A DNA stretch of 32,919 nucleotides from a virus (Duplodnaviria; Heunggongvirae; Uroviricota; Caudoviricetes). The DNA lies in IMG/VR virus record IMGVR_UViG_2690316321_000007; one strand, given 5' to 3'. The translations under genes were made by a program, and so were the position numbers. Below are positions 6,458-25,305 of this stretch, piece by piece. The notes under the pieces are model-generated. The model worked only from the letters and a program-made list of their open reading frames with translations. It searched no databases and was not told where the DNA came from. Within the stretch, counting starts at the first letter, position 1. Each line of letters begins with the position of its first letter.

Positions 6458-6513
6458 GGTTTTCTCACTTCTGAATCGGGGTTAACCGGTCAGCCAGGCT
6501 GACCGGATGAAAA

Positions 6514-7032
6514 TCACAGGCCGATATTGCGGCGGTGTTGCTCCAGCCGGTCGACGCCGTTCACCTTCTCAATCATGTTGATGGTGTCGATTTCGACCAG
6601 TTCCTTACCGTCCATCGTCAGCCGGAAATAGGTGCAGACCACAGAGATTTTCGACTCGGTATCTTCTCCCTGTTTCCCCTCGCCGGTGTCGATTTCTTTC
6701 TGACGTCCACGCATGATCACTTCGACGGCCACCGTTTCGCCGGTATCGTCGCGCTGGTAAGAGCCTGCAAAACGAATCGGTACGGCATCCACACCGGTTG
6801 CGGCGTAAAGCTCCCAGATAACCGAATCCGGGAAGCCACCGAGCGACCACTCCATTGACAGCGCATCGTCATCAAGGCCGAGGTCTACCGGTGCGCTGCC
6901 GTTCATCCCCGCACCGCGATAGTTTTCGAGCTTACGGGTCAGTTTTGGTAGCGTGACGGACTTCGCGACGCCCTGATAGCTGTAGCCGTTCAGAAAGACG
7001 TTCATTAACTTGAGTTTGCGCGGCATTGCCAT
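6514..7032 (-). CDS. FII: Tail tube protein FII (172 aa)
   Basis: Length and position match P2 gpFII. Confidence 0.85.
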   Translation of the reverse strand: MAMPRKLKLMNVFLNGYSYQGVAKSVTLPKLTRKLENYRGAGMNGSAPVDLGLDDDALSMEWSLGGFPDSVIWELYAATGVDAVPIRFAGSYQRDDTGETVAVEVIMRGRQKEIDTGEGKQGEDTESKISVVCTYFRLTMDGKELVEIDTINMIEKVNGVDRLEQHRRNIGL

Positions 7033-7044
7033 CGGTCAGGCTCC

Positions 7045-8235: not shown

Positions 8236-8326
8236 CCGTTTAACTCCGTGGTTAATGGGTGCAACTATTTTCTGTTGGGCAGTGCATGAGACGCTATTTG
8301 ACCTGGCTGGTCAGTGGATGAAACAA

Positions 8327-8357
8327 CAGATAAAGAAAATGCGGGCAATTCGCCCGC
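8327..8357 (-). terminator. Terminator-like hairpin upstream of FI (GCGGGC-aattc-GCCCGC, U-rich on minus strand)
   Basis: 6-bp GC stem followed on the minus strand by ATTTTCTTTA; lies between the cargo genes and the FI late promoter region. Confidence 0.45.
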
Positions 8358-8645
8358 CTGTCCTGATTTGTACACACTCATTTTCCGACTGACAATTTAC
8401 ATAGCCCAAAATCTATCAAATCTGACAGTCTGCTTTGAGTGAGAAGCGGAAGTTCAATGTGATAAAGCTCAGGAACATTGTCGTTGATGATGATAAAGAG
8501 GATCAGACTAACTAGCACTTCTCATCACGTTGATAAGGCATAGAAATCACAAACACTATTGTGAATATCGTTTTACTATAGTAAATTCAAGTAAGTTCTT
8601 TTCGTTCGTTATTACACAAAATAAAGTTCACTCTAAGGTTGAAAA

Positions 8646-9089
8646 ATGTTAGATATCAGAATGTCACGACCATCTGAAGCAGATGAGATCATACAAATCT
8701 GGAAGAGTTCAGTCGATGCTACCCACGACTTTCTTACAGGTCATGACCGACAAGAAATCGAAAAAGAAGTTGTCGGCTTTTTCTCAGAAACTCCTGTATG
8801 GGTTGCAACAAATCAGGATGACCAACCGCTAGGATTTATGTTTTTGCATGAGGGCCATCTGGAGGCACTTTTTGTAGCAGGCTCTGCTCGCGGACTTGGC
8901 GTCGGAAAACGTTTGATCTCTCATGCACTGGCGCTGCATCCAGAGCTAAGCGTTGATGTAAATGAACAAAACCAGCAGGCTGTAGGGTTTTATCAGCATA
9001 TGGGTTTTCAGGTATTAGGGCGTTCCGATCTGGATAATCAGGGAAGGCCATACCCCTTGTTGCATCTGAGAATGGCCAATAACATGTAA
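8646..9089 (+). CDS. GNAT-family N-acetyltransferase, YjaB-like (147 aa); accessory cargo
   Basis: Motifs IWKSSVDATHDFL, LGFMFL, VGKRLISHAL and NEQNQQAVGFYQHMGF resemble E. coli YjaB from memory; AT-rich upstream region; lies in the G-FI junction. Confidence 0.75.
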   Translation: MLDIRMSRPSEADEIIQIWKSSVDATHDFLTGHDRQEIEKEVVGFFSETPVWVATNQDDQPLGFMFLHEGHLEALFVAGSARGLGVGKRLISHALALHPELSVDVNEQNQQAVGFYQHMGFQVLGRSDLDNQGRPYPLLHLRMANNM

Positions 9090-9109
9090 CCAATGTGGCA
9101 GAGAAGATA

Positions 9110-9694
9110 TCATTGATTTTTTTGGCTAAAAGCCACGATGTAAGAACAGCTCTGCTCACTATCTGGATTGCTCATTTGGTACTCGCTTGCAAAGGTAAGG
9201 GCAAGACAGTCACCGGCACGTAAATGATGGGTCTGATTTTTGACTCGAAAATCAAGGCTACCACTCATCACCCAAAGCGTTTGCCCGGAAAGATGCTCAT
9301 TTGCGGAGGCGGGTATCGTCAGCTCACCCATTGCAGGAATTTCAACTTTGATCAGTTCCGGGCATGCCCCCGCAGGAGACAAAGACCAACGGGTGATGCC
9401 TGATTGCTCATCCGTCCAGTGCTGTTGCTGATGAGCAAAACGAACCAGGGAATTCTGATGTTGCTCAAGCTCTGCAAAGAGTTTAGATAGCGTTACATTC
9501 ATGGCGTTGGCCAGGCGGCTAAGGATAGTTGCACTAGGGCTGGAGATGCCTCGTTCAATCTTACTAATCATGGCCTGACTGACGCCCGATCGTTGAGCAA
9601 GCTCAGTTACAGTCAAATTGCGAGCCTTCCTGTGTTTAAGCAATAAACGTGCAATATCGCTATCTACTATCTGATTTTTAGATTTTTTATCCAT
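9110..9694 (-). CDS. XRE-family HTH transcriptional regulator with C-terminal cupin domain (194 aa); accessory cargo
   Basis: N-terminal LTVTELAQRSGVSQAMISKIERG helix-turn-helix; C-terminal half has cupin-like character. The 305-aa six-frame ORF was trimmed to the ATG at 9694 because the extension overlaps G and lacks a ribosome-binding site. Confidence 0.7.
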   Translation of the reverse strand: MDKKSKNQIVDSDIARLLLKHRKARNLTVTELAQRSGVSQAMISKIERGISSPSATILSRLANAMNVTLSKLFAELEQHQNSLVRFAHQQQHWTDEQSGITRWSLSPAGACPELIKVEIPAMGELTIPASANEHLSGQTLWVMSGSLDFRVKNQTHHLRAGDCLALTFASEYQMSNPDSEQSCSYIVAFSQKNQ

Positions 9695-9929
9695 TTCCGC
9701 CCTCTCTTTCACCAACCTGATTATGCCATTACATAAATTGGCCTGAAATAAATGATTTTGTAAGTCTGTAAATTCACTACTCCTAAGCGTGGTACTTCGT
9801 TTATACGCACCTATGACCTTAAAATATGAGTTGGTAAGCTTAACGTCCGCTTTTGGCACAGAGCGGACTGTCAGATTAGGCTTTACTCTGTGCCATAGAT
9901 ATGTAAGCTCACACCAGAGCTCATACAAC

Positions 9930-10457
9930 TTATTGCGGCATTTCCGGCCATTCAGGATTTGCAGGATCCACACGACTGACCAGAACGCTGTAACGCTCCC
10001 ATGCATCCAGTCGGCTACGCTCCTCATCTGTTGCCATATTCAGTCTGACCGCGCGCTCCAGCGGCAAAATCACGGATTCAGCATCTGCTAGAAGTCTGGC
10101 TTTCCGATTTTCTGCCTGCTGCTGCAATTCCTCCGCCGTATAAATTCGTTTAATCACTGTGCCGTCCTTAAACATCCAGTTCCCTGAAATGTCCGCCCGT
10201 CGGTTAGCAGTAATATCTGGCACTTCAACAACACTTAATCCATCTGGTCTGATAGCTGTCACATCCTTTTCCACATAGCGGATAATATTATCTTTGTCGT
10301 ACGCTATTTTTATCGTGTCATCAGCAAAATACTTTTGTTCTTCGTACCAGTTCTTACCATCTTCTGAAAAAAACCAGACAACATCAAAACCCTTTGTCAA
10401 TTGATATTGTTCAACCGTTTTTGGATTACCCGCTGTTATATTTATCAAATGCTGCAT
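9930..10457 (-). CDS. G: Tail fibre assembly chaperone G (175 aa)
   Basis: Length and position match P2 gpG. Confidence 0.85.
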
Positions 10458-10460
10458 AAA

Positions 10461-12590
10461 TTATACCTGTGCCACGTTATACCATGTCCCGTTAATGTAT
10501 TTCTGCACCGGTCTGTAATATATGCCACCAATGTTATCGGCAGAGTTTGAGCCGGTATCCTGAACAATAATGCCAGAATATACACACCCGGACGGTGCCT
10601 GATGTGTCCATGTCATGCCATTGTTCGCTGGTTTGTATGTGGCAGCACCACCAAGCCGGATATCCCGGACATAGCGGGAATCAAAGTTACCGTAATCCGA
10701 GGGATTAACACGCCCCGTAATATTTATGGTTTTATTACTTTGAATGCTACCGGAGACAAAGCGCATAACATGGACGTTATTAGCATAAACATCCAGATTA
10801 CCGTCGCCATTTTGTTTAAAGCCCGTGTCATTATCACCCAAAACAATCGAGTTACCGCCAAGATCACTGGATGTTCCGATGCCCAGTGCACCATTCAATT
10901 GACCTCCAGATAATGACAACGCCCCAACATCAGCAGCAGTCGGTTTAATGTGCGAACTGTAAATTACATATACAGTTCCATCTGTCAGGCCTGTTGGTTT
11001 ATTCGCTGTATAAGTTGGTGATGTATGAATCGTTACGCTGGCGTTACTGGTATAATCCCACTGAATATTAACACCTGTGGCGTAATTACCTATTTCAACA
11101 TAAACATCATAGGTATCACCGGATGTATTCACCCATGCAAAATTAGTAAATCCAACCGATGTCCGTCGCCATAACGCACCAGTAAGACCTTTTGGATTTC
11201 CATTTCCCGCACGAAGAACAAGTTCAGATATACCAGCCTGCATAGGGGAGTTAACATTATATCCAGCACCACCAATCAGGCTTATGTAAACCACGGAACT
11301 TGCCTGGGGCATGGTTACAGTTGCCAGCCTGAACCATCCTGTACCACCACTAAAAGACATGGTTGTTGAATTTGTTGCTCCAATATTGCGCAGGAATAAT
11401 CTTTTATCAGGAATATCCGCACCGTTCTGATCTTTCTGAAGACGTTTTTCAGCATTGTCATAGGCAGACTTCACCGCTTTTGGTGTTGCGGCCAGCGTTT
11501 CAGAATCACTGTTGGTGGCGCTACTGAGCTGAACAAGCCCTTTTCGCGCTGTGGTGGCATCCTGTGCAGTGTATTTCCCGTTAGCAAGGTCATACGCGAC
11601 CTTTACCGCCTTTGGCGTTGCCGCAAGCGTTTCAGAATCGCTGTTTGTGGCGCTACTGAGCTGGACAAGACCTTTTCGCGCCGTGGTGGCATCCTGTGCG
11701 GTATATTTCCCGTTAGCGAGGTCATATGCTGTCTTAACCGCCTTTGGCGTTGCGGCCAGCGTTTCAGAATCGCTGTTGGTGGCGCTACTTAGCTGGACAA
11801 GACCTTTTCGCGCGGTGGTGGCATCCTGTGCGGTATATTTCCCGTTAGCGAGGTCATATGCTGCCTTTACCGCCTTTGGCGTTGCCGCAAGCGTTTCAGA
11901 ATCGCTGTTGGTGGCGCTACTGAGCTGAACAAGGCCTTTTCGCGCTGTGGTGGCATCCTGCGCGGTATATTTCCCGTTAGCAAGATCATAAGCGGCCTTT
12001 ACCGCTTTCGGCGTTGCGGCCAGTGTTTCAGACGTGCTGTTGGTCGCACTGCTTAACTGAGTAAAACCTTTTGCGGTCAGCGAGGCGTCCGGGTGACGTC
12101 GTGACTGTTCGTGCTCTGCAATTTTGTCATCAACGTAATCCTGCGTCGCCATCACCGTTGTGGTGTCAATGGTCAGCGCCACTGAGGCCACACTGCTGAC
12201 GATGATGACCATGCGGCAGGTCTGCGAACGCCCTGAGCCTTCGGCAAGAGCTGGCTTATAACTTTCGGCCATGTTCGCCACGGCAATTAACGTTCCAGCA
12301 TCATCGTACAGGCCAAGCTCACGCATCCAGAAACCGCCCACCTCCGGCGGAATAACCAGCTCTGCGATAATATAATTACTGTTTCGTTTGTCCTGGCTGA
12401 TTTTGTTCAGCGCATGTCGCCAGACTTCATGGATAAGCCCGGTCTGTCCGGCATCCGGGACAGGCAATTTACCACCGCCATCCCCGACGGCCATCGTGGT
12501 AATGTTGACCTTCCGCCCTCCCGGTGCGGTTGCCGCTGCCAGCTTTGCTGCACCGGCAGTGGTGATAACGGTTTTGAATTTTGTGCTCAT
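10461..12590 (-). CDS. H: Tail fibre protein H (709 aa) with expanded internal repeat and divergent C-terminal region
   Basis: Conserved N-terminus and the C-terminal IVLGDNDTGFKQNGDG...QKYINGTWYNVAQV block; five copies of a 44-aa repeat in the middle. Confidence 0.85.
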   Translation of the reverse strand: MSTKFKTVITTAGAAKLAAATAPGGRKVNITTMAVGDGGGKLPVPDAGQTGLIHEVWRHALNKISQDKRNSNYIIAELVIPPEVGGFWMRELGLYDDAGTLIAVANMAESYKPALAEGSGRSQTCRMVIIVSSVASVALTIDTTTVMATQDYVDDKIAEHEQSRRHPDASLTAKGFTQLSSATNSTSETLAATPKAVKAAYDLANGKYTAQDATTARKGLVQLSSATNSDSETLAATPKAVKAAYDLANGKYTAQDATTARKGLVQLSSATNSDSETLAATPKAVKTAYDLANGKYTAQDATTARKGLVQLSSATNSDSETLAATPKAVKVAYDLANGKYTAQDATTARKGLVQLSSATNSDSETLAATPKAVKSAYDNAEKRLQKDQNGADIPDKRLFLRNIGATNSTTMSFSGGTGWFRLATVTMPQASSVVYISLIGGAGYNVNSPMQAGISELVLRAGNGNPKGLTGALWRRTSVGFTNFAWVNTSGDTYDVYVEIGNYATGVNIQWDYTSNASVTIHTSPTYTANKPTGLTDGTVYVIYSSHIKPTAADVGALSLSGGQLNGALGIGTSSDLGGNSIVLGDNDTGFKQNGDGNLDVYANNVHVMRFVSGSIQSNKTINITGRVNPSDYGNFDSRYVRDIRLGGAATYKPANNGMTWTHQAPSGCVYSGIIVQDTGSNSADNIGGIYYRPVQKYINGTWYNVAQV
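11459..12059. repeat. Tandem 132-bp (44-codon) repeat, about 4.5 copies, inside tail fibre gene H
   Basis: Unit encodes QLSSATNS(D/T)SETLAATPKAVKxAYDLANGKYTAQDATTARKGLV; the nucleotide period of 132 is visible directly in the sequence. Confidence 0.85.
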
Positions 12591-12600
12591 TATTCCTCAC

Positions 12601-13131
12601 TTATCCGGGGTAAACCGTAATTACATCGCCGTCATAAGCCACACCACCGGCGAACAGGTAGCCGGGAATGTCCCGGGTAATGTTCAGGCCAATAAGGTGG
12701 CGGCTTGCAGGTTTGGCATCAGCAATCAGCCGTTCCATTTCCTGATACATTGCCTCCGTGATGCCACTTTCCAGTACACCAATATCAAGCCGGAAGGTGC
12801 CGGGCGGGTCACTGTTTTCCCACCACTCCGTCACGTTGATGAGATAGCCGAGCGGCTCCACCACACGCCGGATTGCGCCGACAGTGCCTTTATGACAATG
12901 AATGAAATACGCATCGCGGATAACGGCGCGTTTTGTCGCTTCCGGCCACTTTTCATCCCACCTGTCGACCGAAAACGCCCACGCCAGCCACGGCAGCAGA
13001 TTTGCCGGACAGGTATCCGGGTTCCACAGCTCACGAATACTGACCGGCGTTTTTTCAATTTCCGCACAGGCTTTTGCGGCAGCAACTTCAAGCGGTGATG
13101 AGCCGGTCGGCAGCAGTCGCGAATCACTCAT
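12601..13131 (-). CDS. I: Baseplate assembly protein I (176 aa)
   Basis: Length and position match P2 gpI. Confidence 0.85.
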   Translation of the reverse strand: MSDSRLLPTGSSPLEVAAAKACAEIEKTPVSIRELWNPDTCPANLLPWLAWAFSVDRWDEKWPEATKRAVIRDAYFIHCHKGTVGAIRRVVEPLGYLINVTEWWENSDPPGTFRLDIGVLESGITEAMYQEMERLIADAKPASRHLIGLNITRDIPGYLFAGGVAYDGDVITVYPG

Positions 13132-14032
13132 CCGAGCCTCCGGTCACGACGCGGTATTCGGTACAGAAAGACGCCTGCGTACTGTTGAGCACGATGTCAG
13201 CCAGTGGTGCAGTCAGTTCGACACGCTGCACGCCTTCCACATGCAAAGCGGCATAAATGGCAGACAGACGGATGTCGCGCCCCAGCCGGTGCTGTGCCGT
13301 GATATACGCTTCCAGTTTTTTCACGGCGGCAGCGCGGATGGGTTCGCTTTCGGGACCAGGGTAAAGATACAGCGTGGCGTTTATCTGGTATTCAACGATG
13401 GCGGCAGACTGCACGGTCACGCGGTCGGCCACCGGCCTGACGTCCTCGCCATTAAGGGCGTTACGCACCACGGCCAGCAGGTCTTCGGATGCGACGCCGT
13501 TATTTTCACGTGACAGCACAGAGATAGTGACGCAGGCCGGAGACGGACTGGTGACAGAGATATCCGCGACACGCCCGTCGGCACTGCGGCCATGATACTG
13601 ATAGGCACCCACCGACCCGGCGACGCTTAAACCTTCAAACGCCTGCTGAATACGCAGACGATAATCGGTGTCAGACTCCATCACTGCCGGTGTCGGCGGG
13701 AGGGTCGAATCATCTGCCGGGGTGATAGTCAGGCGCGTGGTGTTGTAATTGGCACCCATCACATCAAGGTCATTACCGGCAGCACAGGCCAGCATCACCG
13801 CCCGTGCGGCCTCATTCACACGCTGACGCCAGATAAGCTCACGATAAGCATTTTCCTCCAGCAGTTTGACGAGAGGCTCGGATTCCAGCATCAGGGTACG
13901 GGCGACCGCCTCCTGCTGGTCTTCCGGGTAAAGGGAAATCAGTGTCGCCTTGCGTTCGGCAAGAATGGTTTCAAAGTCCAGCTCCTCGACCACATCCGGT
14001 GCGGGTAGCTGGTTCAGGTCGATAATCGGCAT
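13124..14032 (-). CDS. J: Baseplate assembly protein J (302 aa)
   Basis: Length and position match P2 gpJ. Confidence 0.85.
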   Translation of the reverse strand: MPIIDLNQLPAPDVVEELDFETILAERKATLISLYPEDQQEAVARTLMLESEPLVKLLEENAYRELIWRQRVNEAARAVMLACAAGNDLDVMGANYNTTRLTITPADDSTLPPTPAVMESDTDYRLRIQQAFEGLSVAGSVGAYQYHGRSADGRVADISVTSPSPACVTISVLSRENNGVASEDLLAVVRNALNGEDVRPVADRVTVQSAAIVEYQINATLYLYPGPESEPIRAAAVKKLEAYITAQHRLGRDIRLSAIYAALHVEGVQRVELTAPLADIVLNSTQASFCTEYRVVTGGSDE

Positions 14033-14036
14033 GGTT

Positions 14037-14384
14037 TCAACTCACAGGGATGGTTAACGAAAGTGGCTGGCCGGTGTCGTTGTGCTGACCGGTTAACGTG
14101 ACCGTCATTCGCCCGTCAAAACTGCGCGCCGTGGTGACGGATGACAGGGTGACGCGGGGTTCCCATTTCAGCACCGCCATGTAACAGGCGACCTTAATCT
14201 GCAACTCAAGCGCCGGGGTCTGCGGCTGGTCAATCATTGATGCCAGCAACGAGCCGTAATCACGACGCATCACCCGTGAGCCAACCGGCGTGCGCAGGAT
14301 ATCGCCGATACTCTGGCTGATATGTTCAAGGTCAGTGACAGTCAGGCCATCACTGCGATTCATTCCGAGATAACGCGCTGTCAT
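14037..14384 (-). CDS. W: Baseplate wedge protein W (115 aa)
   Basis: Length and position match P2 gpW. Confidence 0.85.
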   Translation of the reverse strand: MTARYLGMNRSDGLTVTDLEHISQSIGDILRTPVGSRVMRRDYGSLLASMIDQPQTPALELQIKVACYMAVLKWEPRVTLSSVTTARSFDGRMTVTLTGQHNDTGQPLSLTIPVS

Positions 14385-15016
14385 AGAGGGCTCCCGGTTG
14401 TGCCGCCGCTGTCGCCGGGGTGTTTATGGGTATGCAGTACCTTACCGTTTGATGAGAGTTCACCGCCGGTGTGTTCAATGTTGCCGCGCATCGTCCCGCC
14501 CTTCTGCACTTCCAGCGTGCCGGTAATCAGCCTGTTGGTGCAGACCACCTCCGGGGTGTCCAGGGTGACGCGGGTTGATGCTTTCACCATGACCACCGGC
14601 ACCGTGGCGGTAACAGAATCAGAAGCCGTCACGCTGGCCGTTTTAATTCCGCTTACCGTGAGTGCACTGGTTTCAGGTTCATACTCAATCACCGCCCCGT
14701 CAGGGAAACGGATATGCAGAGCATCCGCCGACACAGACGGCGAGGGGTTATCGCCGGAATAAATCCCCGGCAGAACGAACGCCGTGTCGAGTTCACCACC
14801 CACGGCCAGAATCAGCACCTGTTCCCCCACGGAAGGTGCCCACCATGTGCGCGAACGTCCTGCGCGATGGGTCAGCCACTGAAGCCAGTCGGTGCACATG
14901 CCGCCGGTCTGCACGCGGCAGCGACCGGCGTTAAGGTCGGTTTCGACGATAATGCCGGTGCGAATCATGTTGCGCAGTGCGCGCGCGAGTTCCTGAATAT
15001 TTGCGAGAGTGTTCAT
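14381..15016 (-). CDS. V: Baseplate spike/hub protein V (211 aa from conserved MNTLANIQ start)
   Basis: The ORF extends to 15034, but the conserved P2 gpV N-terminus begins at the ATG at 15016. Confidence 0.8.
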   Translation of the reverse strand: MNTLANIQELARALRNMIRTGIIVETDLNAGRCRVQTGGMCTDWLQWLTHRAGRSRTWWAPSVGEQVLILAVGGELDTAFVLPGIYSGDNPSPSVSADALHIRFPDGAVIEYEPETSALTVSGIKTASVTASDSVTATVPVVMVKASTRVTLDTPEVVCTNRLITGTLEVQKGGTMRGNIEHTGGELSSNGKVLHTHKHPGDSGGTTGSPL

Positions 15017-15099
15017 GCATGTGAGATTGCACAATATATAAAAGTTATGCTATCTGGATTCATTTGTAGAACTACCAGACAACATTCAAGGAGAGCGTA

Positions 15100-15885
15100 A
15101 TGGTCAGCTATAATGTGACTAATGTGTGGGGGCTAATCGTTTTTTTCCTTTGTAGCTTTGCAGTATTAGCATTTTTTAGCTTTGGTAAAAGTAACCTTAT
15201 GAGGCTTATTGCACATTATTTCAATTTTGGATATTCAGACAAAAAATTAAAAAGACTTGACCGCGAGTGGCGCGACATTCAACTATTTAAAATAATTAAC
15301 GGAATCAATGTATCAGGCATTGAAAATGTGAGAATGATACAGCAGGGACTGATTGATGGAAAACTAAAAACATCGTATTTTTTCCTTACTCGCATCTGGG
15401 GTGACATAACAAAACCACCACACATAATTAAAACAATAATTGTAATTCTGGCCAGTATTTTTTACATTCTCCTCGCATGTTACATACACAACGAACAATC
15501 CGTTATAGTAAGGGATGCCATAGGCATACCATATAAAAACATGATGTACTATGTTTATAGTGACAAAGTTCTTTTATCCTTCAAAAATAAAGCAGTTGAA
15601 TTTAATAAAACTTATAGCCTTGCCGATTGCAAGAGACTGCAAAACGTATTTATAAAAGACACACTTCCTGAGATCGCCTGCAATAAGCTCTTACAGCTAA
15701 ACGAGGAGGACTCCGAATGGTTAAGCCAGGAGATTAAAGATAATAACAGTCACAAAAAAGCATTGTTAATACTATCCCTCGTCTATTTCACTTCAGGTCT
15801 GGTTATATTCCTGTCATATACAAAATTCTTTTACGCCAATAAGAAGGTTTTAGAATACAAAGCATCAAATAAAAATCACTCATAA
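15100..15885 (+). CDS. Hypothetical membrane protein (261 aa, three predicted TM helices); AT-rich moron between V and S
   Basis: Strong SD AAGGAG 8 nt upstream; opposite strand to the flanking late genes; markedly AT-rich; hydrophobic segments near residues 9-28, 110-130 and 222-242; no domain I recognise. Same position as P2 orf30. Confidence 0.7.
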   Translation: MVSYNVTNVWGLIVFFLCSFAVLAFFSFGKSNLMRLIAHYFNFGYSDKKLKRLDREWRDIQLFKIINGINVSGIENVRMIQQGLIDGKLKTSYFFLTRIWGDITKPPHIIKTIIVILASIFYILLACYIHNEQSVIVRDAIGIPYKNMMYYVYSDKVLLSFKNKAVEFNKTYSLADCKRLQNVFIKDTLPEIACNKLLQLNEEDSEWLSQEIKDNNSHKKALLILSLVYFTSGLVIFLSYTKFFYANKKVLEYKASNKNHS

Positions 15886-15891
15886 ACCTCT

Positions 15892-15926
15892 AAACATTGA
15901 GCGACCAGCATGGCCGCTCAATGTTT
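15892..15926. terminator. 12-bp-stem hairpin between the convergent moron and S (weak U-tract)
   Basis: AAACATTGAGCG ... CGCTCAATGTTT perfect inverted repeat with 11-nt loop. Confidence 0.4.
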
Positions 15927-15956
15927 AATTGCGCATCAGCCTCTGCCTGGATAAAA

Positions 15957-16409
15957 CTAACGCTCAAGGTGAGCCAGGATAATTTCTTCAATCATCTGCA
16001 CATCCTCACCGGTAAAGCCGAGCAGGGGACGCGCCGGATAATCAATTTTCTTACCGTCTTTCCGGTTTTCTTCCGACAGACCAAACTGATGCACACTGGC
16101 GATTTTCGGTGACTTCCCGCCGTAAAATTCCATTGATGCCTGTTCCGGGCTGGCGCGGATATGCAAAAAGCGACTGGTGATAAGTTTCGCAAACATTTTT
16201 CGCTTAACGCGACCGGTCTTTTTTCTGGCGCTCTGCTGCTGGCGTGGCGCGTAGGGTGTGCCGTCCGGGGCTTTCTGTGCCATCACCCGACGCTGCTGAT
16301 TCTGACGCAGACGTTTCGCCAGTTCGGCACTCAGTCGTCGACGCCCTGACGGTGACAGCGATTCAGTCAGTCCGGTCAGCCGGTCTTCAAAACGCTTAAA
16401 CTCATTCAT
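15957..16409 (-). CDS. S: Tail completion protein S (150 aa)
   Basis: Length and position match P2 gpS. Confidence 0.85.
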   Translation of the reverse strand: MNEFKRFEDRLTGLTESLSPSGRRRLSAELAKRLRQNQQRRVMAQKAPDGTPYAPRQQQSARKKTGRVKRKMFAKLITSRFLHIRASPEQASMEFYGGKSPKIASVHQFGLSEENRKDGKKIDYPARPLLGFTGEDVQMIEEIILAHLER

Positions 16410-16869
16410 CCCACTTGCTCACCAGTTCGCCATTGATATAAAGCTCCATCGGGCGGGTGACCGGCTCCGGCGGCGGAGGTTCCGGGATATTCTTCACATG
16501 CAGCGCGCCGTCCACCTCACTGACCAGCGTGCGCTCGGTCAGCATCAGGCTGATACTGATATCAAAGCTGCTGTCATTGTTGATGTCTGCATAAAACGTG
16601 AAGCCCTTTTTCTGGCCTTCGTCGGTGGTCATGATGTCGGGCTGATTTTCCCGCAGCCACGCCAGCACCGGCACGATGAGCAGGTCAAAATCACCGGTAA
16701 AGTCGGTCACAATGACATTGAGCGTGTAACGCTTTTCGAATGACAGCGACGTCGCCAGTGTGGAGGCAATATTCCCGTTATCCACGAATATCCGAAGCAT
16801 CTCGGGACTGGTTTTCAGCACCGTGACGGCATCAGTCAGCGCCCTGCGCAGGCTGTCGGGTTTGAGCAT
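16402..16869 (-). CDS. R: Tail completion protein R (155 aa)
   Basis: Length and position match P2 gpR. Confidence 0.85.
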   Translation of the reverse strand: MLKPDSLRRALTDAVTVLKTSPEMLRIFVDNGNIASTLATSLSFEKRYTLNVIVTDFTGDFDLLIVPVLAWLRENQPDIMTTDEGQKKGFTFYADINNDSSFDISISLMLTERTLVSEVDGALHVKNIPEPPPPEPVTRPMELYINGELVSKWDE

Positions 16870-17122
16870 CGTTTTCGTCCTGACAGTGTTTAATCATTTT
16901 TACCTGGCTGGCACAGCGTGCCAGCGCGTTCTCAAGCTGCCGGATATCAGCACTTAAATCGCCGTTCGTCTGCGGGTCACTGCCCGGCATCGGGCAAAGG
17001 CTCACTTTCGGGCAGGCGCTGGGGACAATCACTGGCGTCGGTGCAGGCCGGGCGCTGGTGCAACCGGCGCACAGCATCAGGCAGGTCAGCACCGTACCAG
17101 CGGCGAAAATCTTCGTTTTCAT
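16832..17122 (-). CDS. lysC: LysC, Rz1-like outer-membrane lipoprotein spanin (96 aa)
   Basis: MKTKIFAAGTVLTCLMLCAGC signal peptide with lipobox; overlaps the lysB 3' end in another frame and the R start. Confidence 0.75.
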   Translation of the reverse strand: MKTKIFAAGTVLTCLMLCAGCTSARPAPTPVIVPSACPKVSLCPMPGSDPQTNGDLSADIRQLENALARCASQVKMIKHCQDENDAQTRQPAQGAD

Positions 17123-17402
17123 TGAGTAACCTCGTGATGGTTTTCTCGCGCTGTGCTTCACGCTTCGCGGCGTTCTCCAGTTCCTGACGCAGTGCCACCT
17201 GCGCCAGCTCGTTTTTGTCTGCCCTGGTGAGGGCAACATGAAGCTGATTTTTCAGCATGGTGATGGTCGTCTGCTGCCCGCTGGCGACATTGTTTGCCCT
17301 GTCCAGCGAGGCGCGCAGGCTGGCGTTTTCATGCTTCGCCAGAAACAGACAAGCCACCGCCAGTGATAACAACACAACCAGCACAATCATCAGCTTTGAC
17401 AT
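16977..17402 (-). CDS. lysB: LysB, Rz-like inner-membrane spanin (141 aa)
   Basis: N-terminal TM segment then coiled-coil-like region; length matches P2 LysB. Confidence 0.8.
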   Translation of the reverse strand: MSKLMIVLVVLLSLAVACLFLAKHENASLRASLDRANNVASGQQTTITMLKNQLHVALTRADKNELAQVALRQELENAAKREAQREKTITRLLNENEDFRRWYGADLPDAVRRLHQRPACTDASDCPQRLPESEPLPDAGQ

Positions 17403-17815
17403 AATTCCCGCCCCTCAAAACGCTGACGGCAGGCCGTACGTATCAGCCGGAAGAACACCGACGCCACGAGATAAATCAGCGCGGTAAAAATCCACCCGGC
17501 AGCGACCAGCGAGATAAACGTCGCCACCATCACCACCAGAGCCGCCGCCCGTCTGCGCCACGGCACCGGCTGCAAAAACAGCGACGCGACAATCTTCACG
17601 GCCAGCGATTCCGGCGGCAGCTCCCGCCCGTAGCGTTCCAGCACATACTCCGTGGCATACACGCCGACACCACCGGCAACCACACAGATAACCGTCGCCA
17701 GAATCGCCCAGGTGGCGACAAAACTGACGGCCACGCTCTGCGGATAAATCAGGGACAGTGCCAGCATCAGCGCCAGCGACACGTTCAGCATCAGTGAAAG
17801 GGATAATTTCTTCAT
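17390..17815 (-). CDS. lysA: LysA, membrane protein of the lysis cassette (141 aa)
   Basis: Multi-TM hydrophobic protein; length and position match P2 LysA. Confidence 0.8.
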   Translation of the reverse strand: MKKLSLSLMLNVSLALMLALSLIYPQSVAVSFVATWAILATVICVVAGGVGVYATEYVLERYGRELPPESLAVKIVASLFLQPVPWRRRAAALVVMVATFISLVAAGWIFTALIYLVASVFFRLIRTACRQRFEGRELCQS

Positions 17816-17829
17816 GGTGTTTACTCCGT

Positions 17830-18327
17830 TTAAGCCGGTACGCCGCCAGCGGTACGCCAGACGGTGGCCAGTTTTTCCAGTGAATGCTCACGCTGACCGT
17901 AACCGGCACCCGGCAGGGACGCCCAGATATTGCGACAGCGTGAAATGGCGCGCTCAATGCGTCCCGCCCGGATGTCATCCAGTGCACCGCGTTCGCGGAT
18001 CAACTGAATGGTGAGTCTGTCCTGCGACAACGAACTGAAATCCGGCAGGGCAAGCTGTTTGCGGTAGTGCGGCCAGAACAGGTAAAGCTGCTGATAGCGA
18101 CCGGAGGCAGTGGATTTTTCACCGCGACGGTTAAACACCTTCGCCGGTCGGCCATGCGCGAACGGGTGGTCACTGTAGTCGGTGAAAATTTCCGGCTTTC
18201 CGTCCAGTCCGGTGACTATCACGTCATAGCCCCGGTTTTTCGTCAGCGGATGATTCGCCGTCCCTTCGGACACGGCCAGCATGTCGAGAAAGGCGGCGAT
18301 ATTCTGATGCGTGTTAATTACCGGCAT
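17830..18327 (-). CDS. K: Endolysin K (165 aa)
   Basis: Length and position match P2 gpK. Confidence 0.85.
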   Translation of the reverse strand: MPVINTHQNIAAFLDMLAVSEGTANHPLTKNRGYDVIVTGLDGKPEIFTDYSDHPFAHGRPAKVFNRRGEKSTASGRYQQLYLFWPHYRKQLALPDFSSLSQDRLTIQLIRERGALDDIRAGRIERAISRCRNIWASLPGAGYGQREHSLEKLATVWRTAGGVPA

Positions 18328-18608
18328 TACGGTTTCCCCCTGCCCTTAAAGCGGCGCTGAATGGCAATCTCAATCACCTGATAACCGGCGATACCCAGCA
18401 TGGAGCCGATGCCGCACACCGCAGGCAGTGACAGGTCAGGAAACTGCACCAGAACAACACCGGCAACCATCGAGACAAAACCACCGAGCAACATGCGCCC
18501 GATAAACAGACGCGGGGTGATGGGTTCACCACCGGCAAGCACCTTGCCGACAACAATCAGCACCCCAATCATGAAAAGCGACAGGACGCTTTTTTCTTCT
18601 GCTGTCAT
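18327..18608 (-). CDS. Y: Holin Y (93 aa)
   Basis: Small protein with hydrophobic segments; length and position match P2 gpY. Confidence 0.85.
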   Translation of the reverse strand: MTAEEKSVLSLFMIGVLIVVGKVLAGGEPITPRLFIGRMLLGGFVSMVAGVVLVQFPDLSLPAVCGIGSMLGIAGYQVIEIAIQRRFKGRGKP

Positions 18609-18611
18609 GCG

Positions 18612-18815
18612 TTACTCCCACAGATTGACAGTTTCAGCCACGGGCGCGGTCTGAACGTCGGGCAGTTCGACGGCGGTGCCGTGCGGCAGCACCGCACCCA
18701 GTTCAGCCAGTCCCGGATTTGCGGCGAGCACGGCTTCAACCACGCCCTCAGTGCGCCCGTAATACCGGACACAAATGGCGTCGAGCGTGTCGCCCTGTAG
18801 CGCAAAGGTCTTCAT
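18612..18815 (-). CDS. X: Tail protein X (67 aa)
   Basis: Conserved MKTFALQGDTLDAICVRYYG start; six-frame ORF trimmed; start overlaps the L stop. Confidence 0.8.
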   Translation of the reverse strand: MKTFALQGDTLDAICVRYYGRTEGVVEAVLAANPGLAELGAVLPHGTAVELPDVQTAPVAETVNLWE

Positions 18816-19324
18816 CAGATTTGACTCACGATGCAACGCGGCTTGTCCTGGATGCGCGCCACTGCCCAGCGCATATCCCGCCACAGTTCATCAATGGTGC
18901 TGTCAATGCTGTCAGCCTTCTTGTCGCCTTTCGCACTGGCATCCACGCCGCGATAACGCTCATAAAGCGACGCGGTCGCCATCGCACACACGGCGCGCTC
19001 GTAGTAAAAAACTTTGATGCTTTCACCGTCGATGTCGTCCGCCGGGACGTCCGCCAGACGCGTAAAACCGGCGGCAATTTTCTGTTCGCGGTACTCGTAC
19101 AGATCCGCATTTGTTTCCGCCATACCTGACTTGATGGCCTCACGCAGACGGGCGGGGGCGACGGTCTGCTCAAGGCGCATACGTTCCCGGACGCGCTTCG
19201 GGTCGATATCGGGAAAAAAGAACGTGTTTTTAATCACCGGCTCGTCGCCTGCCGGTTGCGGGATGACCACCGTACCCTCACCGGACACGGGAGCCTCCTT
19301 TCGCGGAATAATCAGCGTCATCAT
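18815..19324 (-). CDS. L: Capsid completion protein L (169 aa)
   Basis: Conserved MMTLIIPRKEAP start; six-frame ORF trimmed by 20 codons. Confidence 0.8.
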   Translation of the reverse strand: MMTLIIPRKEAPVSGEGTVVIPQPAGDEPVIKNTFFFPDIDPKRVRERMRLEQTVAPARLREAIKSGMAETNADLYEYREQKIAAGFTRLADVPADDIDGESIKVFYYERAVCAMATASLYERYRGVDASAKGDKKADSIDSTIDELWRDMRWAVARIQDKPRCIVSQI

Positions 19325-19423
19325 GACTACCTCTGAAAAGTCGGGCGGTGGACGCCGGTGCAGTGTCAGGTGATTCACCCTCACTGACCGGCGTGCCGCC
19401 CTGGCGCGGGGCGCATTCGGTTG

Positions 19424-20167
19424 TTAACTGGCTTTCTTTTTCGGGCGTCCACGTTTTGCCGGTGTCGCACTCCGGGTCTTACGCGTGGCACGGGTGGCCG
19501 CTTTGGGTTGCGGCTCCGGCTTCGGTTTCAGCTCCCGCTCCAGTCGTTCAATCTCTTTTTTGACGCCTGCCTGACAGTCGAGCTGTGTCGCACGTTGCAG
19601 GTGCGCCAGCGCACCGGCGGCATCACCAGCGTCACGCAGAAACAGACCGGTGATTTTGTGCAGCTTTGCGCGCACTTCATCAGGCATGTCTGCCGTGGCG
19701 GTCAGTTCAAGGGTCTCCGTCAGCAGGCGGGGAGCCACAGACTCACCGGCAGCGTGGGCGCGCATGGCCGCGAGCGCGACCTCCTCGGTGAACATGTACG
19801 GCGGGGTGCGGCGGTGTTTACCCGGCATGGTCAGACCGTACTTCAGGGCATAACGGGCAATCTCCAGCGCACCGGCAATATCGCCGGTATCCAGACGCCA
19901 CAGCATGACCGTCATCAGAATGTCATCCTGTGCACCTTTTCCCTGCTCCAGCACGCCGTTCACCCACGGCAACCAGAACGGCAGCAGTTCGCGTTTTTTC
20001 GCGGCCTTCAGCTCTTTTGAATAAATTGCTTTCAGTGTGCGCTGGTCTGCGGCCAGCTTGACCAGCATCTGCTCATAGACAGTTGCATGTCGCAGCGGGG
20101 CGGCTTCCCGCTGCGCGGTCATCGCAGCCGAGACCCGCATCATGTGGCGCTGTGCGGGACTCGTCAT
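19424..20167 (-). CDS. M: Terminase small (endonuclease) subunit M (247 aa)
   Basis: Length and position match P2 gpM. Confidence 0.85.
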   Translation of the reverse strand: MTSPAQRHMMRVSAAMTAQREAAPLRHATVYEQMLVKLAADQRTLKAIYSKELKAAKKRELLPFWLPWVNGVLEQGKGAQDDILMTVMLWRLDTGDIAGALEIARYALKYGLTMPGKHRRTPPYMFTEEVALAAMRAHAAGESVAPRLLTETLELTATADMPDEVRAKLHKITGLFLRDAGDAAGALAHLQRATQLDCQAGVKKEIERLERELKPKPEPQPKAATRATRKTRSATPAKRGRPKKKAS

Positions 20168-20170
20168 CGG

Positions 20171-21243
20171 TTACGCTCCCGGCTCTGCGGTCGCCTTAGC
20201 CGGTGTGGAGAAATCACCGACCTTAATTTTTTCCACCAGACAACCGGCGGCGTAGTCTTCCACCACGTAATCAATGTTCATTGACTCGTAGTTCTCCACG
20301 CGGTCGAGTTTCGGGTTTTCCTCAATCACGCGGCGATGGCTGTCATCCATGTAGTAGATGGACAGGTTTTCCAGCTTCGTGATGAGCATCGCATCCGCCG
20401 GGAAGTACGGGACGCGTACCGCCGGCAGGTTACCGATGCGTTTCTGGCTGATGATGACGTCAGCGGCCAGCATCTCGCTGTTGTCCTGCTCCCTGTTGAC
20501 GATGGGGAAATACTTGTCCGCCAGTAGCTGGCGACCCACAATCACCACAAGGTCAGGGTCTTCCTGATACCACGGTTCAATCAGGTTGTTGGTCGCATCC
20601 ATCACCAGTGCATCAAGGCTGGCATAATCACCGCCCTTACCCACGCGGATAACCTCAGAGGTCGTGCGGCCTTCCTCGTCAGTGACCTTGCTCATCACGC
20701 GCGCCGGGGCTTCATTGCGGTATTTCTGCAGCCAGCCGACCGCCACATCCTGCAGCATCGGGTTACTGCTGCGGTCAGAGGTTTCGGCACGCTTCACGCC
20801 GTTAAAACCGGCCATGATGAAATCAAGGGACTGGCGTTTGATAATGGCGTTACGGACACGGAGCTGGAAATCCTGATAACGCGCCCACAGGTCCAGCGTT
20901 TTGTCGCGGATATAAAAATCGAAGTTAATCTGGTCGCATTCGTACTTGTTTGACGCCAGCTTCGAGAAGTCCTTCGGCTGACGCTCGGTGCCACCGGCGG
21001 TGTCGGTGGTGCTGGCGATGGAGCCGGTGACACCGATGCCAATTTTTTCCCTTTCATTTCGCTGACCGGCACAATGTTGATGCGGGTCAGAAAGTCAGAG
21101 GACTCCTGCATGGTGTTCATCAGGGTCTGGGTGACCGACGGTTCAACGGTGAATTTTTTCGACACATCACCGGCGTCGATGCCGTTCAGTTCGGCAACAC
21201 GGGACAGGTAAGCATTAAATTTAAAGCGGGTTTCCTGGCGCAT
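20171..21243 (-). pseudogene. N: Major capsid protein N, disrupted by a 1-bp frameshift in a homopolymer near 21046..21052
   Basis: Span is 1073 nt (1074 expected for 357 aa). The N-terminal 65 codons read in one frame to SEMKG, then the conserved continuation EKIGIGVTGSIASTTD... is in the -1 frame and stays open to the stop at 20171; the junction is GGG-AAAAAA on the coding strand. Confidence 0.8.
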
Positions 21244-21301
21244 AGTTTTTCCTGAAATTAAGGGTTAATCGTGAAGGTTTTCCCGGACTGACTGACGCCG
21301 G

Positions 21302-22156
21302 TCAGCAGTTCGTCAGCAGGGCATCACCGCCACCGCCGGTGGCTTTACTGCGGCGCTGCTGGGTCAGACTTTCGGTGTGGTCGAGACTGTTTTTCAGGCG
21401 GGTGAATGCCTGGCTGGTTTCATCCGCCCTGTCAGTCACCTCCTGCTTAAGAGTGGAAAAGGCAGTTTCCATCTCAGCGAGGCGCTGCTCAGTGGCACTC
21501 AGTTTTTCCTGCACATGTTCAGCAACAGCGGTCACCGCTTCATGCACGTCATTCAGACGGGCGTCATCGCTGGCCTGTTTGCGGCCAAAAATGGATTTCA
21601 CCTTTTCGGTCAGGGCGGTGAACACGGTTTCAGGCAGGTCTTCAAATTCCAGCTCAACGGGCGTTGCCACTGAAATCAGGTTTTCAGGGCTTAATTTGAA
21701 GCGGTTCAGGGGGTTGTGTTTTGCCGTGCGGCAGAATTCCAGGTATTCCGTGCCGAGGCTTGCCGGGTCATCGGTGACGGCCAGCCCCACCAGATAACAT
21801 TTGCCGGTGTTGGCAAAGTTCGGCTGAATTTCCATTGAGGTGTAGACCTTCTGCGCGGCCTTGTTCATCGCGATAAGGTCATCTGTCGGGGTGATTTTCG
21901 CAAACAGCGCCCATTTGCCTTTCAGCGCCGAATCATCGTCAATCTTTTCGGCCTTCAGTTCGGCCACATCGCCATAACGTTTAAAAATACCGTCAGGCAG
22001 GATGCCGCGCAGATGTTCCAGGTTAATACGGCAACCATAGACACGCGGGTCAAAGGTTTCGGCCATTTCCTGAATATCCTGCGCACTGATGACACGCCCG
22101 TCACAGGTGTCACCCTCAACGCCGATACGAAAGAATTTTGAGACTTTTTTTGCCAT
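21302..22156 (-). CDS. O: Capsid scaffolding protein O (284 aa)
   Basis: Conserved MAKKVSKFFRIGVEGD start; six-frame ORF trimmed by 22 codons. Confidence 0.85.
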   Translation of the reverse strand: MAKKVSKFFRIGVEGDTCDGRVISAQDIQEMAETFDPRVYGCRINLEHLRGILPDGIFKRYGDVAELKAEKIDDDSALKGKWALFAKITPTDDLIAMNKAAQKVYTSMEIQPNFANTGKCYLVGLAVTDDPASLGTEYLEFCRTAKHNPLNRFKLSPENLISVATPVELEFEDLPETVFTALTEKVKSIFGRKQASDDARLNDVHEAVTAVAEHVQEKLSATEQRLAEMETAFSTLKQEVTDRADETSQAFTRLKNSLDHTESLTQQRRSKATGGGGDALLTNC

Positions 22157-22329
22157 TGTCAGGAGTCCTGAATAGTGATTAGAGGAGTCACATGTCGGCA
22201 TCAGTTTCCCGACGATGCGCATCCTCCGCCATCAGTCCCGGATGGCTTATCACTGACACAACAGCACCTTAGCGAATCGCGGGGCGCGACTCAGTAGCCT
22301 TGCCGTGTATTCATCACGGCGAGGTATTC
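22157..22329. promoter_or_regulatory. Divergent late promoter region between O and P (expected Ogr-dependent)
   Basis: 173-bp intergenic region between divergently transcribed late operons; individual promoter elements not mapped. Confidence 0.4.
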
Positions 22330-24102
22330 ATGACCATCACCACAGACACCACTCTTTTACACGACCCGCGTCGTCAGGCGGCGCTGCTGTACTGGCAGGG
22401 GTTTTCCGTGCCGCAGATTGCCGCCATGTTGCAGATGAAACGCCCGACGGTGCAGAGCTGGAAACAGCGCGACGGCTGGGACAGCGTTGCCCCCATCAGC
22501 CGTGTCGAAATGAGTCTGGAAGCGCGGCTGACCCAGCTCATCATCAAACCGCAGAAAACCGGCGGTGACTTCAAGGAAATTGACCTGCTCGGACGCCAGA
22601 TTGAACGACTGGCACGGGTAAACCGCTACAGTCAGACCGGCAACGAGGCAGACCTTAATCCGAACGTCGCTAACCGCAACAAAGGCGGGCGTCGCAAACC
22701 GAAAAAGAATTTTTTCAGTGACGAGGCCATCGAAAAGCTGGAGCAGATTTTCTTTGAGCAGTCTTTCGACTATCAGTTGCACTGGTATCGCGCCGGGCTT
22801 GAGCACCGCATCCGCGATATCCTGAAATCCCGCCAGATTGGCGCGACGTTTTATTTTTCCCGCGAGGCGCTGCTGCGTGCCCTGAAAACCGGTCATAACC
22901 AGATTTTTCTGTCGGCCAGTAAAACGCAGGCGTATGTATTCCGCGAATACATCATCGCCTTTGCCCGGCTGGTTGACGTTGACCTGACCGGTGACCCGAT
23001 TGTCCTGGGCAATAACGGCGCAAAACTGATTTTTCTCGGCACCAACTCCAACACCGCGCAGAGCCATAACGGCGACCTGTACGTCGACGAGATTTTCTGG
23101 ATCCCGAATTTTCAGGTACTGCGTAAGGTGGCATCAGGTATGGCCTCACAGAGTCACCTGCGCTCGACCTATTTCTCCACCCCGTCCACGCTGGCGCACG
23201 ACGCCTACCCGTTCTGGTCGGGTGAACTGTTTAACCGGGGACGCGCCAGCGCCGCCGAACGCGTGGAAATCGACGTCAGTCATAACGCACTTGCCGGAGG
23301 TCTTCTCTGTGCGGACGGCCAGTGGCGGCAGATTGTCACCATTGAGGACGCCCTGAAAGGTGGCTGCACACTGTTCGACATTGAGCAGCTCAAACACGAA
23401 AACAGCGCCGACGATTTTAAAAACCTGTTCATGTGTGAATTTGTTGACGACAAGGCATCGGTGTTCCCGTTCGAGGAGCTGCAACGCTGCATGGTCGACA
23501 CGCTGGAAGAATGGGAAGACTATGCGCCGTTTGCCGCCAATCCGTTCGGCTCCCGCCCGGTATGGATTGGTTACGACCCGTCACACCGTGGCGACAGCGC
23601 CGGATGCGTGGTGCTGGCACCGCCGGTGGTGGCCGGTGGCAAATTCAGGATACTTGAGCGTCACCAGTGGAAAGGCATGGACTTTGCCACCCAGGCTGAA
23701 TCCATCCGCAAACTCACCGAAAAATATAACGTCGAATACATCGGTATTGATGCCACCGGCCTCGGTGTCGGCGTGTTCCAGCTCGTGCGCTCGTTCTATC
23801 CCGCCGCGCGCGATATCCGCTACACACCGGAAATGAAAACCGCAATGGTGCTCAAGGCAAAAGACGTTATCCGTCGTGGCTGTCTGGAATATGACGTCAG
23901 CGCCACCGACATCACCAGCTCGTTTATGGCTATCCGCAAGACCATGACCAGCAGCGGACGCAGCGCCACCTATGAGGCCAGCCGCAGCGAGGAAGCCAGC
24001 CACGCCGACCTCGCCTGGGCGACCATGCACGCCCTGTTAAATGAGCCACTCACCGCCGGTATCAGCACCCCGCTGACATCCACCATTCTGGAGTTTTACT
24101 GA
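22330..24102 (+). CDS. P: Terminase large (ATPase) subunit P (590 aa)
   Basis: Conserved MTITTDTTLLHDPRRQAALLYWQGF start; six-frame ORF trimmed by 10 codons. Confidence 0.85.
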   Translation: MTITTDTTLLHDPRRQAALLYWQGFSVPQIAAMLQMKRPTVQSWKQRDGWDSVAPISRVEMSLEARLTQLIIKPQKTGGDFKEIDLLGRQIERLARVNRYSQTGNEADLNPNVANRNKGGRRKPKKNFFSDEAIEKLEQIFFEQSFDYQLHWYRAGLEHRIRDILKSRQIGATFYFSREALLRALKTGHNQIFLSASKTQAYVFREYIIAFARLVDVDLTGDPIVLGNNGAKLIFLGTNSNTAQSHNGDLYVDEIFWIPNFQVLRKVASGMASQSHLRSTYFSTPSTLAHDAYPFWSGELFNRGRASAAERVEIDVSHNALAGGLLCADGQWRQIVTIEDALKGGCTLFDIEQLKHENSADDFKNLFMCEFVDDKASVFPFEELQRCMVDTLEEWEDYAPFAANPFGSRPVWIGYDPSHRGDSAGCVVLAPPVVAGGKFRILERHQWKGMDFATQAESIRKLTEKYNVEYIGIDATGLGVGVFQLVRSFYPAARDIRYTPEMKTAMVLKAKDVIRRGCLEYDVSATDITSSFMAIRKTMTSSGRSATYEASRSEEASHADLAWATMHALLNEPLTAGISTPLTSTILEFY

Positions 24103-25136: not shown

Positions 25137-25141
25137 ACATC

Positions 25142-25163
25142 GCCGCCTGCGGGCGGCTTTTTT
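25142..25163 (+). terminator. Rho-independent terminator after Q
   Basis: GCCGCC-tgcg-GGCGGC stem-loop followed by T6. Confidence 0.7.
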
Positions 25164-25305
25164 ACACCCCGTCATCACCCCCTCACACGCTCACCACCGC
25201 ACAAAACACCCAGCAGACACACCAACGCCTCAACGGGCAGACTAAGCGCCGTCACGACGCGCTGAGACGCTGAAAAAATAAAATCAGCACCACCGCCAGC
25301 GCGCA

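Follow-up and report, generated by a model that had tools for sequence, protein, structure and literature searches.

Orf30 of P2-like prophages: a predicted inner-membrane protein at the V/S junction and its possible role at the cell envelope

What is the function of an AT-rich gene that lies between the tail genes V and S of P2-like prophages and is read against both of them? The gene considered here occupies positions 15100..15885 on the + strand of a viral stretch of 32,919 nucleotides (nt), IMG/VR record IMGVR_UViG_2690316321_000007, referred to below as the window. It is orf30 of bacteriophage P2, a textbook phage of which orf30 is among the few genes still without a function. Three of the four genes antisense to P2 operons (old, tin and fun) turned out to act against phages, and led to two productive defence hotspots. 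Within the reach of our literature search, no paper gives orf30 a function.

A P2 gene at the boundary of two late operons

The flagged gene is P2 orf30 itself, already known. The 1.2 kb interval 14900-16100 is 99.6% identical to P2 (AF063097 9224-10424), and the coding sequence (261 amino acids, aa, plus a stop, from an ATG start) is an allele that differs from P2 Orf30 (AAD03281.1) by 3 nt and a single residue (T141I; 99.6% aa identity). Position and strand are those of P2, and nothing material differs. The first-pass annotation, which had matched the position to P2 orf30, was right and understated the case. The profile of PHROG 2407 ('unknown function') aligns over the full length (1-261/261, E 5.5e-149), and the P2 record annotates orf30 as 'nonessential'. 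A run of 261 stop-free codons would arise by chance with p = 1.9e-9 at the base composition of orf30 itself. The G+C content (GC) is 0.341 for the gene and 0.353 for the interval 15017-15956, against 0.528 for the remaining prophage and 0.55-0.61 for the 400-nt windows flanking orf30. A Shine-Dalgarno sequence, AAGGAGAG at 15088-15095 on the + strand, read directly from the sequence, places GGAG 6 nt ahead of the ATG. The initial description of an AT-rich antisense gene with a strong Shine-Dalgarno signal, on the + strand between - strand flanks, is therefore accurate.

The same annotation spoke of a late-gene run interrupted at this point. The antisense placement between V and S is real; no operon is broken, and orf30 sits at the boundary which the annotation of the P2 record places between the end of the O operon, marked by its terminator, and pV, the promoter of the V operon. 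It is a dispensable accessory cargo gene at this boundary: 53 of 78 close relatives have nothing at the junction, and the P2 record calls the gene nonessential. The census behind these counts took in 80 IMG/VR relatives that share at least 95% identity with the window in V, 78 of which contain both anchor genes. Besides the 53 empty junctions (69 bp), 16 relatives carry orf30 and 9 carry other AT-rich cargo with a GC of 0.34-0.39. In the 16 carriers the orf30 alleles are 80-99% identical, and V and S 95-99%.

The alternative cargo includes a complete Pycsar system (PycTM + PycC, E 1e-128), an AAA+TIR protein, an ATPase matching the candidate system PDC-S59, a RelA_SpoT-domain protein (PDC-S33, toxSAS-like), an HNH-like open reading frame (ORF) and two unknowns. 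Listed together, the loci with the Pycsar, AAA+TIR, RelA_SpoT and PDC-S59 ATPase genes are L091 2998-4900, L039 3392-4918, L081 3776-4876 and L080 3650-4894. Conserved core anchors are thus combined with diverse AT-rich cargo that includes known defence systems, a gene content which marks the V/S junction as a defence-type hotspot. By Hendrix-type usage, orf30 also shows features of a moron, with a distinct GC, absence from most close relatives and a terminator of its own.

The notion of a moron inserted here needs one amendment. The AT-rich, dispensable and accessory character of the gene stands; a recent insertion does not, because distant homologues occupy the same V/S slot. At 20 of the 21 loci examined in Escherichia, Enterobacter, Serratia and Sodalis, a homologue lies at the V/S junction on the opposite strand. 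They comprise Serratia nevei (L002), S. ureilytica (L102), Sodalis (L104), an Enterobacter metagenome-assembled genome (L100), fifteen IMG/VR loci (L004-L018) and a remnant (L101). Identity to P2 at the distant loci is 60-85% for V, J and R and only 22-39% for the Orf30 homologue. The family is therefore an old occupant of the junction, whose sequence diverges, or is swapped, at a far higher rate than the adjacent genes. Some distant homologues are accompanied by extra genes, encoding a transmembrane (TM) protein in L012 and an ORF6N protein in L013 and L015; the latter two loci also hold what by eye is an apparent HigB/HigA-type toxin-antitoxin pair. In Serratia, Sodalis and E. coli BL21 the junction gene and S overlap convergently.

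Two loci stand apart. The remnant L101, in Serratia rubidaea, is a decayed P2-like prophage which keeps Ogr, V, a fragment of S and an intact homologue of 253 aa (3001-3762), a hint of retention after the death of the prophage. In Enterobacter sp. CPE_E222 (L003), a 39%-identical homologue lies at the end of the contig and is followed not by S but by an outer membrane protein beta-barrel gene and then ordinary chromosomal genes; either a remnant or a rare context other than P2 would account for this arrangement.

The anchor gene S shows a pattern of its own. Wherever the junction cargo is neither P2-type orf30 nor empty (L004-L018, L029, L061, L080, L091 and L100), S is 41-56% identical to that of P2, compared with 60-85% for R, V and J. 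This suggests that the recombination tracts which replace junction cargo also carry S.

The variability of the locus has been noted before. Orf30 is listed as of unknown function, and as one of three horizontally acquired variable loci in P2-like phages together with TO and Z (PMC3091744), and the P2-like phage R18C has an unrelated 741-bp ORF in its place (PMC6823313). A 2024 hotspot survey lists TO, Z and a third site near the CI gene (bioRxiv 10.1101/2024.10.15.618418), and a 2026 study places defence systems 'within the tail genes' and 'downstream of GpL', a description in which the S/V junction is not resolved (PMC13586616). We believe that the breadth of the family, the conservation of its V/S position across genera, the topology model described below and the Pycsar, TIR and RelA-SpoT cargo of the junction are absent from the literature that our search could reach.

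Predicted anatomy of the protein and its relatives

Three hydrophobic helices had been proposed, with lysine- and asparagine-rich loops, and both features are borne out: Kyte-Doolittle hydropathy (19-residue window) has three peaks above 2.2, at roughly aa 9-28, 109-128 and 221-240, and 25 of the 261 residues are lysine and 19 asparagine. TM1 (aa 9-28; 15124..15183, +) follows an uncharged N-terminus of 8 aa, predicted to be periplasmic. Loop 1 (aa 29-108; 15184..15423, +) is predicted to be cytoplasmic and helical, with a net charge of +7; it is the most conserved region of the protein, with the motif D-x-Q-L-[FY]-[KR]-x-x-N-G-[IV]-N-V...D...G, and W/F-G-x-[IV]-[TG] ahead of TM2. The latter (aa 109-128; 15424..15483, +) is placed by hydropathy and by an AlphaFold2 model. 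Loop 2 (aa 129-220; 15484..15759, +), predicted to be periplasmic, is modelled as a four-stranded beta-sheet plus helices, and TM3 (aa 221-240) is followed by a basic tail (aa 241-261, net +4) predicted to be cytoplasmic (15760..15882 together, +). The model, built on a 28-sequence alignment, reaches a predicted local distance difference test score of 84 and a predicted template-modelling score of 0.73, with helical TM segments and a helical loop 1.

The charges and the cysteines give the orientation. Averaged over 25 non-redundant family representatives, the net charge is -0.8 for the N-terminus, +5.1 for loop 1, -0.2 for loop 2 and +2.0 for the C-terminal tail. Loop 2 contains exactly two cysteines in 24 of these 25 representatives and three in the other, and loop 1 usually has none. 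In loop 2, C194 is invariant and its partner, C177, is shifted by two columns in three members. The basic loop 1 and tail, together with the cysteine pair of loop 2, strongly support the prediction that Orf30 is an inner-membrane protein with three TM helices in an N-out/C-in topology, whose loop 2 would be periplasmic and hold one disulfide.

Sequence variation among alleles indicates which parts matter. In pairwise comparisons of orf30 alleles, which are recombinant mosaics, the ratio of nonsynonymous to synonymous substitution rates (dN/dS) is 0.40-0.55 for the whole gene, 0.25-0.35 for loop 1 and 0.10-0.39 for loop 2; it is close to 1 for the N-terminus and TM1, the fastest-evolving part. 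Both loops are under purifying selection, and the gene encodes a functional protein with constrained soluble domains.

The view that the protein contains no recognisable domain has survived database searches. Scans of Orf30 against Pfam, NCBIfam and PADLOC gave no match, the sole NCBIfam score (15 bits against a cut-off of 120 bits) being noise. No convincing structural match was found in the PDB or in BFVD, where Foldseek returned nothing below E 0.05, and a profile search of PDB sequences produced nothing meaningful. Relatives are sparse: a word-seeded search of 5.8 billion proteins recovered only five clusters, and an exhaustive profile search of 1.84 billion representatives gave 44 matches, about 23 of them full length (250-270 aa) and 16-31% identical to P2 Orf30. 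Reciprocal tblastn against P2 Orf30 bears out the kinship, with E 1e-10 for P0017 and E 6e-7 for P0026. All members share three TM helices and the invariant residues G68, G87, C194 and I212, and G29, Q61, D76 and K254 are near-invariant.

Overall, the family spans 16-39% identity and borders Pfam DUF6216 (PF19723), whose gathering cut-off is 27.3 bits. Five of 28 members touch this family: the Sodalis protein P0030 scores 28.9 bits over its full length, above the cut-off, and P0038 scores 24.3 bits, below it. The Orf30 proteins of P2 and of the window have no Pfam match even at E 10, and Orf30 is thus a divergent relative of DUF6216, its nearest curated relative, rather than a scored member.

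A link to well-known laboratory strains comes from the same direction. E. coli BL21(DE3), B and C carry a defective P2-like prophage (at 872-893 kb in BL21(DE3)) in which a 'DUF6216 family protein' (PGAP) is encoded antisense between S and V. The BL21 protein (WP_000115390.1) scores 44.5 bits against DUF6216 and resembles Orf30 in its 268 aa, a GC of 33%, three TM helices, the cysteine pair of loop 2 and the same slot and orientation. Its sequence similarity to Orf30 is marginal (blastp E 0.067; hhalign E 0.0015, probability 16%), and the two types differ in loop 1, which in the BL21 type is about 40 aa long and lacks the D-x-Q-L-F-[KR]...N-G-I-N-V motif of Orf30. A survey of 5426 complete E. 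coli genomes found the orf30 type in 464 of them and the BL21 type in 111; 461 of the orf30 copies span at least 80% of the gene and none is on a plasmid. In BL21(DE3) the junction gene (885114-885920; L107 15114-15920) overlaps the 3' end of S by 59 bp, and the TO hotspot of that prophage contains a retron.

Possible functions of Orf30

What, then, might such a protein do for its carrier? Orf30 may be expressed from the resident prophage and not in late lytic growth, as convergent transcription of the O operon would oppose orf30 at that stage. We propose, with moderate strength, that it would act at the cell envelope or inner membrane and shield the lysogen from other phages. The mode which we favour, though weakly, is superinfection exclusion, in which the genome of an incoming phage would be kept from crossing the inner membrane. 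Anti-phage defence in the broad sense, exclusion and abortive infection taken together, has in our estimation slightly better than an even chance, and an envelope-level role of the exclusion type is our best guess, held tentatively and short of even odds.

The support for a defence role, which the first-pass annotation had suggested in the form of superinfection exclusion or abortive infection, is indirect. The V/S slot of sister prophages holds bona fide or candidate defence genes, both soluble loops of Orf30 are under purifying selection, and fun, tin and old share the antisense layout of orf30, with fun(Z) also sharing its position at an operon boundary. These three P2 genes are AT-rich. 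Like orf30, they are nonessential and antisense to the adjacent operons, and the P2 record annotates all of them as exclusion genes; fun(Z) is, again like orf30, bracketed by the terminator of one operon and the Ogr-dependent promoter of the next. Old (an exonuclease), Tin and Fun share neither size nor annotation with Orf30, an integral membrane protein. An exclusion phenotype has been demonstrated for each of the three and none for Orf30. The TO (tin/old) and Z (fun) loci are presented as validated defence hotspots in PMC9122126 and PMC9519451 and, there and in PMC3091744, as variable ones.

A functional analogue for a block of entry may be SieA of phage P22, which is made from the prophage and located in the inner membrane. 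Like orf30, sieA encodes a prophage-borne multi-TM protein and lies antisense just after a late gene, in its case one for an ejection protein; it has its own promoter (L099 1337-1831). SieA is, however, a protein of 164 aa that lacks a large disulfide-bonded periplasmic domain, and it shows no sequence relationship to Orf30. If the proposed role is right, Orf30 would work like exclusion proteins of the SieA type while being a member of no characterised defence family. A further parallel is SNIPE, a membrane-bound nuclease that acts during genome injection (PMC13190303): it is an inner-membrane defence that exploits the site of genome entry, as proposed for Orf30. The two differ in that SNIPE contains a nuclease domain and Orf30 nothing recognisable as an enzymatic domain, and homology between them was not detected.

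Several observations weigh against a defence role. PADLOC-DB 2.0 gave no match for Orf30 and, among 28 family members, a single marginal one (HamA, E 0.0067), and hhalign against P22 SieA returned a probability of 0.3%, no indication of homology. A sigma-70 scan found no + strand consensus site upstream of orf30, and evidence of its expression was likewise not found. Classical P2 genetics yielded exclusion phenotypes for old, tin and fun, and we know of none for orf30. P2 lysogens admit superinfecting P2 DNA. Given this genetic record, any target of Orf30 is not P2 itself, the common T phages or lambda. The argument from location is itself weak, since the Orf30 family stays in one slot, whereas typical defence cargo swaps quickly. 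In functional selections against T4, lambda-vir and T7, it was other P2 cargo that emerged, and the portion of PMC9519451 that describes them does not mention the S/V junction. H-NS silencing of a gene with 34% GC could reconcile the missing phenotype; silencing of toxic immunity genes by H-NS is the theme of the abstract of bioRxiv 10.64898/2026.09.05.749240, a preprint that also names DUF6216, P2-like elements and BL21.

A bolder version of the defence reading would assign Orf30 and the related DUF6216 proteins to a new class of anti-phage systems, each a single protein of the inner membrane, long resident at the S/V junction across Enterobacterales, in which the variable N-terminal TM segment and the disulfide-bonded periplasmic domain would recognise the phage, the cytoplasmic loop would block it and H-NS would silence the gene in the laboratory. 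We consider it doubtful as a whole; the silencing that it assumes would explain decades of P2 genetics without a phenotype. If orf30 and the DUF6216 genes did prove protective, the S/V junction would become a third hotspot, and about 10% of complete E. coli genomes (464 + 111 of 5426), including those of the workhorse strains B, BL21 and C, would carry a new family of membrane-level defences.

Among the other explanations, the one that survives best is lysogenic conversion unrelated to phages, in which Orf30 would make the host fitter, for example by helping it to withstand stress, to colonise or to resist colicins or tailocins. Intact copies are widespread in E. coli from many hosts, the heavily decayed Serratia remnant L101 has kept an intact homologue, and the Z locus of the present prophage carries cargo that does not look like defence (a GNAT-like ORF and a helix-turn-helix ORF). 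We nonetheless think it unlikely: among the 21 loci the family occurs only at the P2-like V/S junction (bar L003, at its contig end) and never on a plasmid, which points to a role tied to phages, and where the type of neighbouring cargo can be recognised, it is a defence or toxin gene.

Membrane proteins can also defend by killing, and Orf30 might be an abortive-infection effector, in which sensing of infection by its periplasmic or cytoplasmic domain would lead to an oligomeric gated pore or a collapse of membrane potential and the infected cell would be killed or arrested. The glycine-rich conserved segments at both cytoplasmic membrane interfaces (G29 after TM1, W/F-G-x-[IV]-[TG] before TM2) fit this scheme, as does the presence of small TM effectors such as PycTM in the same slot, and the AT-richness of the gene is consistent with the silencing of toxic immunity genes described in the H-NS abstract. 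Orf30, however, is encoded on its own, without a sensor or enzyme as partner, it has no PADLOC match to effectors of the 2TM, PycTM, SLATT or Rex type, and its large conserved soluble loops resemble interaction domains more than a minimal pore. On this evidence an abortive function seems quite improbable to us. A block of entry is weakly preferred to an abortive pore, because two sizeable constrained soluble domains, one on each side of the membrane, and no partner gene suggest an interaction device, not a minimal channel.

The fixed place of the gene beside the spike gene V and the tail-completion gene S, invariant across genera, would be explained by a role in the cycle of P2 itself, for example in lysis timing, in DNA exit or entry, or in guarding the membrane of the lysogen from its own tail or spike. 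The convergent overlap with S in Serratia, Sodalis and BL21, and the unusual divergence of S (41-56%) where the junction cargo differs from that of P2, could be read in the same sense. Such a role is very unlikely: orf30 is annotated as nonessential, 68% of the close relatives lack it while their V and S remain 96-99% identical, and the gene is antisense to the late operons and poorly placed for late expression, with the P2 lysis genes elsewhere. If orf30 does after all serve host fitness or the phage cycle, its strict positional conservation beside V and S needs explaining. A virion or assembly protein is rejected for a gene missing from 68% of close relatives, 'nonessential' and on the strand opposite to the late operons.

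Envelope-level protection of the lysogen stays our preferred reading. The findings make a long-standing small question directly testable, and they would be unsurprising to a P2 specialist.

Flanking signals and other variable loci of the prophage

Both neighbours of orf30 lie on the - strand and are conserved hotspot anchors. Gene V (baseplate spike; 14381..15016) is the first gene of the V operon and starts with the ATG at 15016, a TTG at 15034 being merely an upstream extension of the ORF; W, J and I lie beyond it. Gene S (tail completion; 15957..16409) is the last gene of the O operon, and beyond it lie R and then the lysis genes.

The divergent intergenic region between V and orf30, 83 bp long (15017..15099), contains the Ogr-dependent late promoter pV on the - strand, an annotation transferred from P2 at 99.6% identity. 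The Ogr activator site for pV, of the TGT-N12-ACA type, maps to 15058..15085 (-; feature 10239-10266 of the P2 record), only 15-42 bp upstream of the orf30 ATG. The promoter of orf30 must lie inside 15017..15099 or just upstream of this region. Candidates found by eye, TTGCAC at 15027-32 and TATAAA at 15037-42, are both weak, and the upstream regions of 18 family members, aligned on their start codons, share no common -10 or -35 element.

On the other side, the hairpin noted at the outset, with a 13-bp stem (15891..15927), begins 5 nt past the orf30 stop, between the convergent orf30 and S. Its folding energy is -21.3 kcal/mol on the + strand and -26.8 kcal/mol on the - strand (z = -5.3 for both; 0 of 200 shuffles were as stable). 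In the P2 record it stands as the putative rho-independent terminator at the end of the O operon. It has no clean T-run on the + strand, and probably terminates orf30 transcription as well.

The integrated P2-like prophage spans 1507..32274 of the window, in an orientation reversed relative to the P2 map, with a P2 attP-core at both ends (window 1507 corresponds to P2 24382, and 32274 to P2 24355). It is 94.7-97.7% identical to P2 across most of its length, and differs at the Z/fun and old/tin loci. The TO (old/tin) hotspot (25353-26328), between gene A and cos/Q, is nearly empty: it measures about 1 kb instead of the 3.2 kb of P2, its largest ORF has 81 aa, and the prophage is without old and tin.

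The Z/fun locus (8454-9841) holds cargo other than that of P2. Judged by eye, it includes a GNAT acetyltransferase-like ORF of 147 aa (8646-9089, +) and, within 9110-10027, a - strand ORF with an XRE-type helix-turn-helix followed by a cupin-like domain.

Identity to P2 drops to 78-85% in the distal H/G region (9841-11865). In the region of the tail-fibre gene H (11457-12072), overlapping blastn matches offset by about 130 bp all fall on P2 13252-13459, which suggests that in H a unit of about 130 bp is repeated in tandem more often than in P2.

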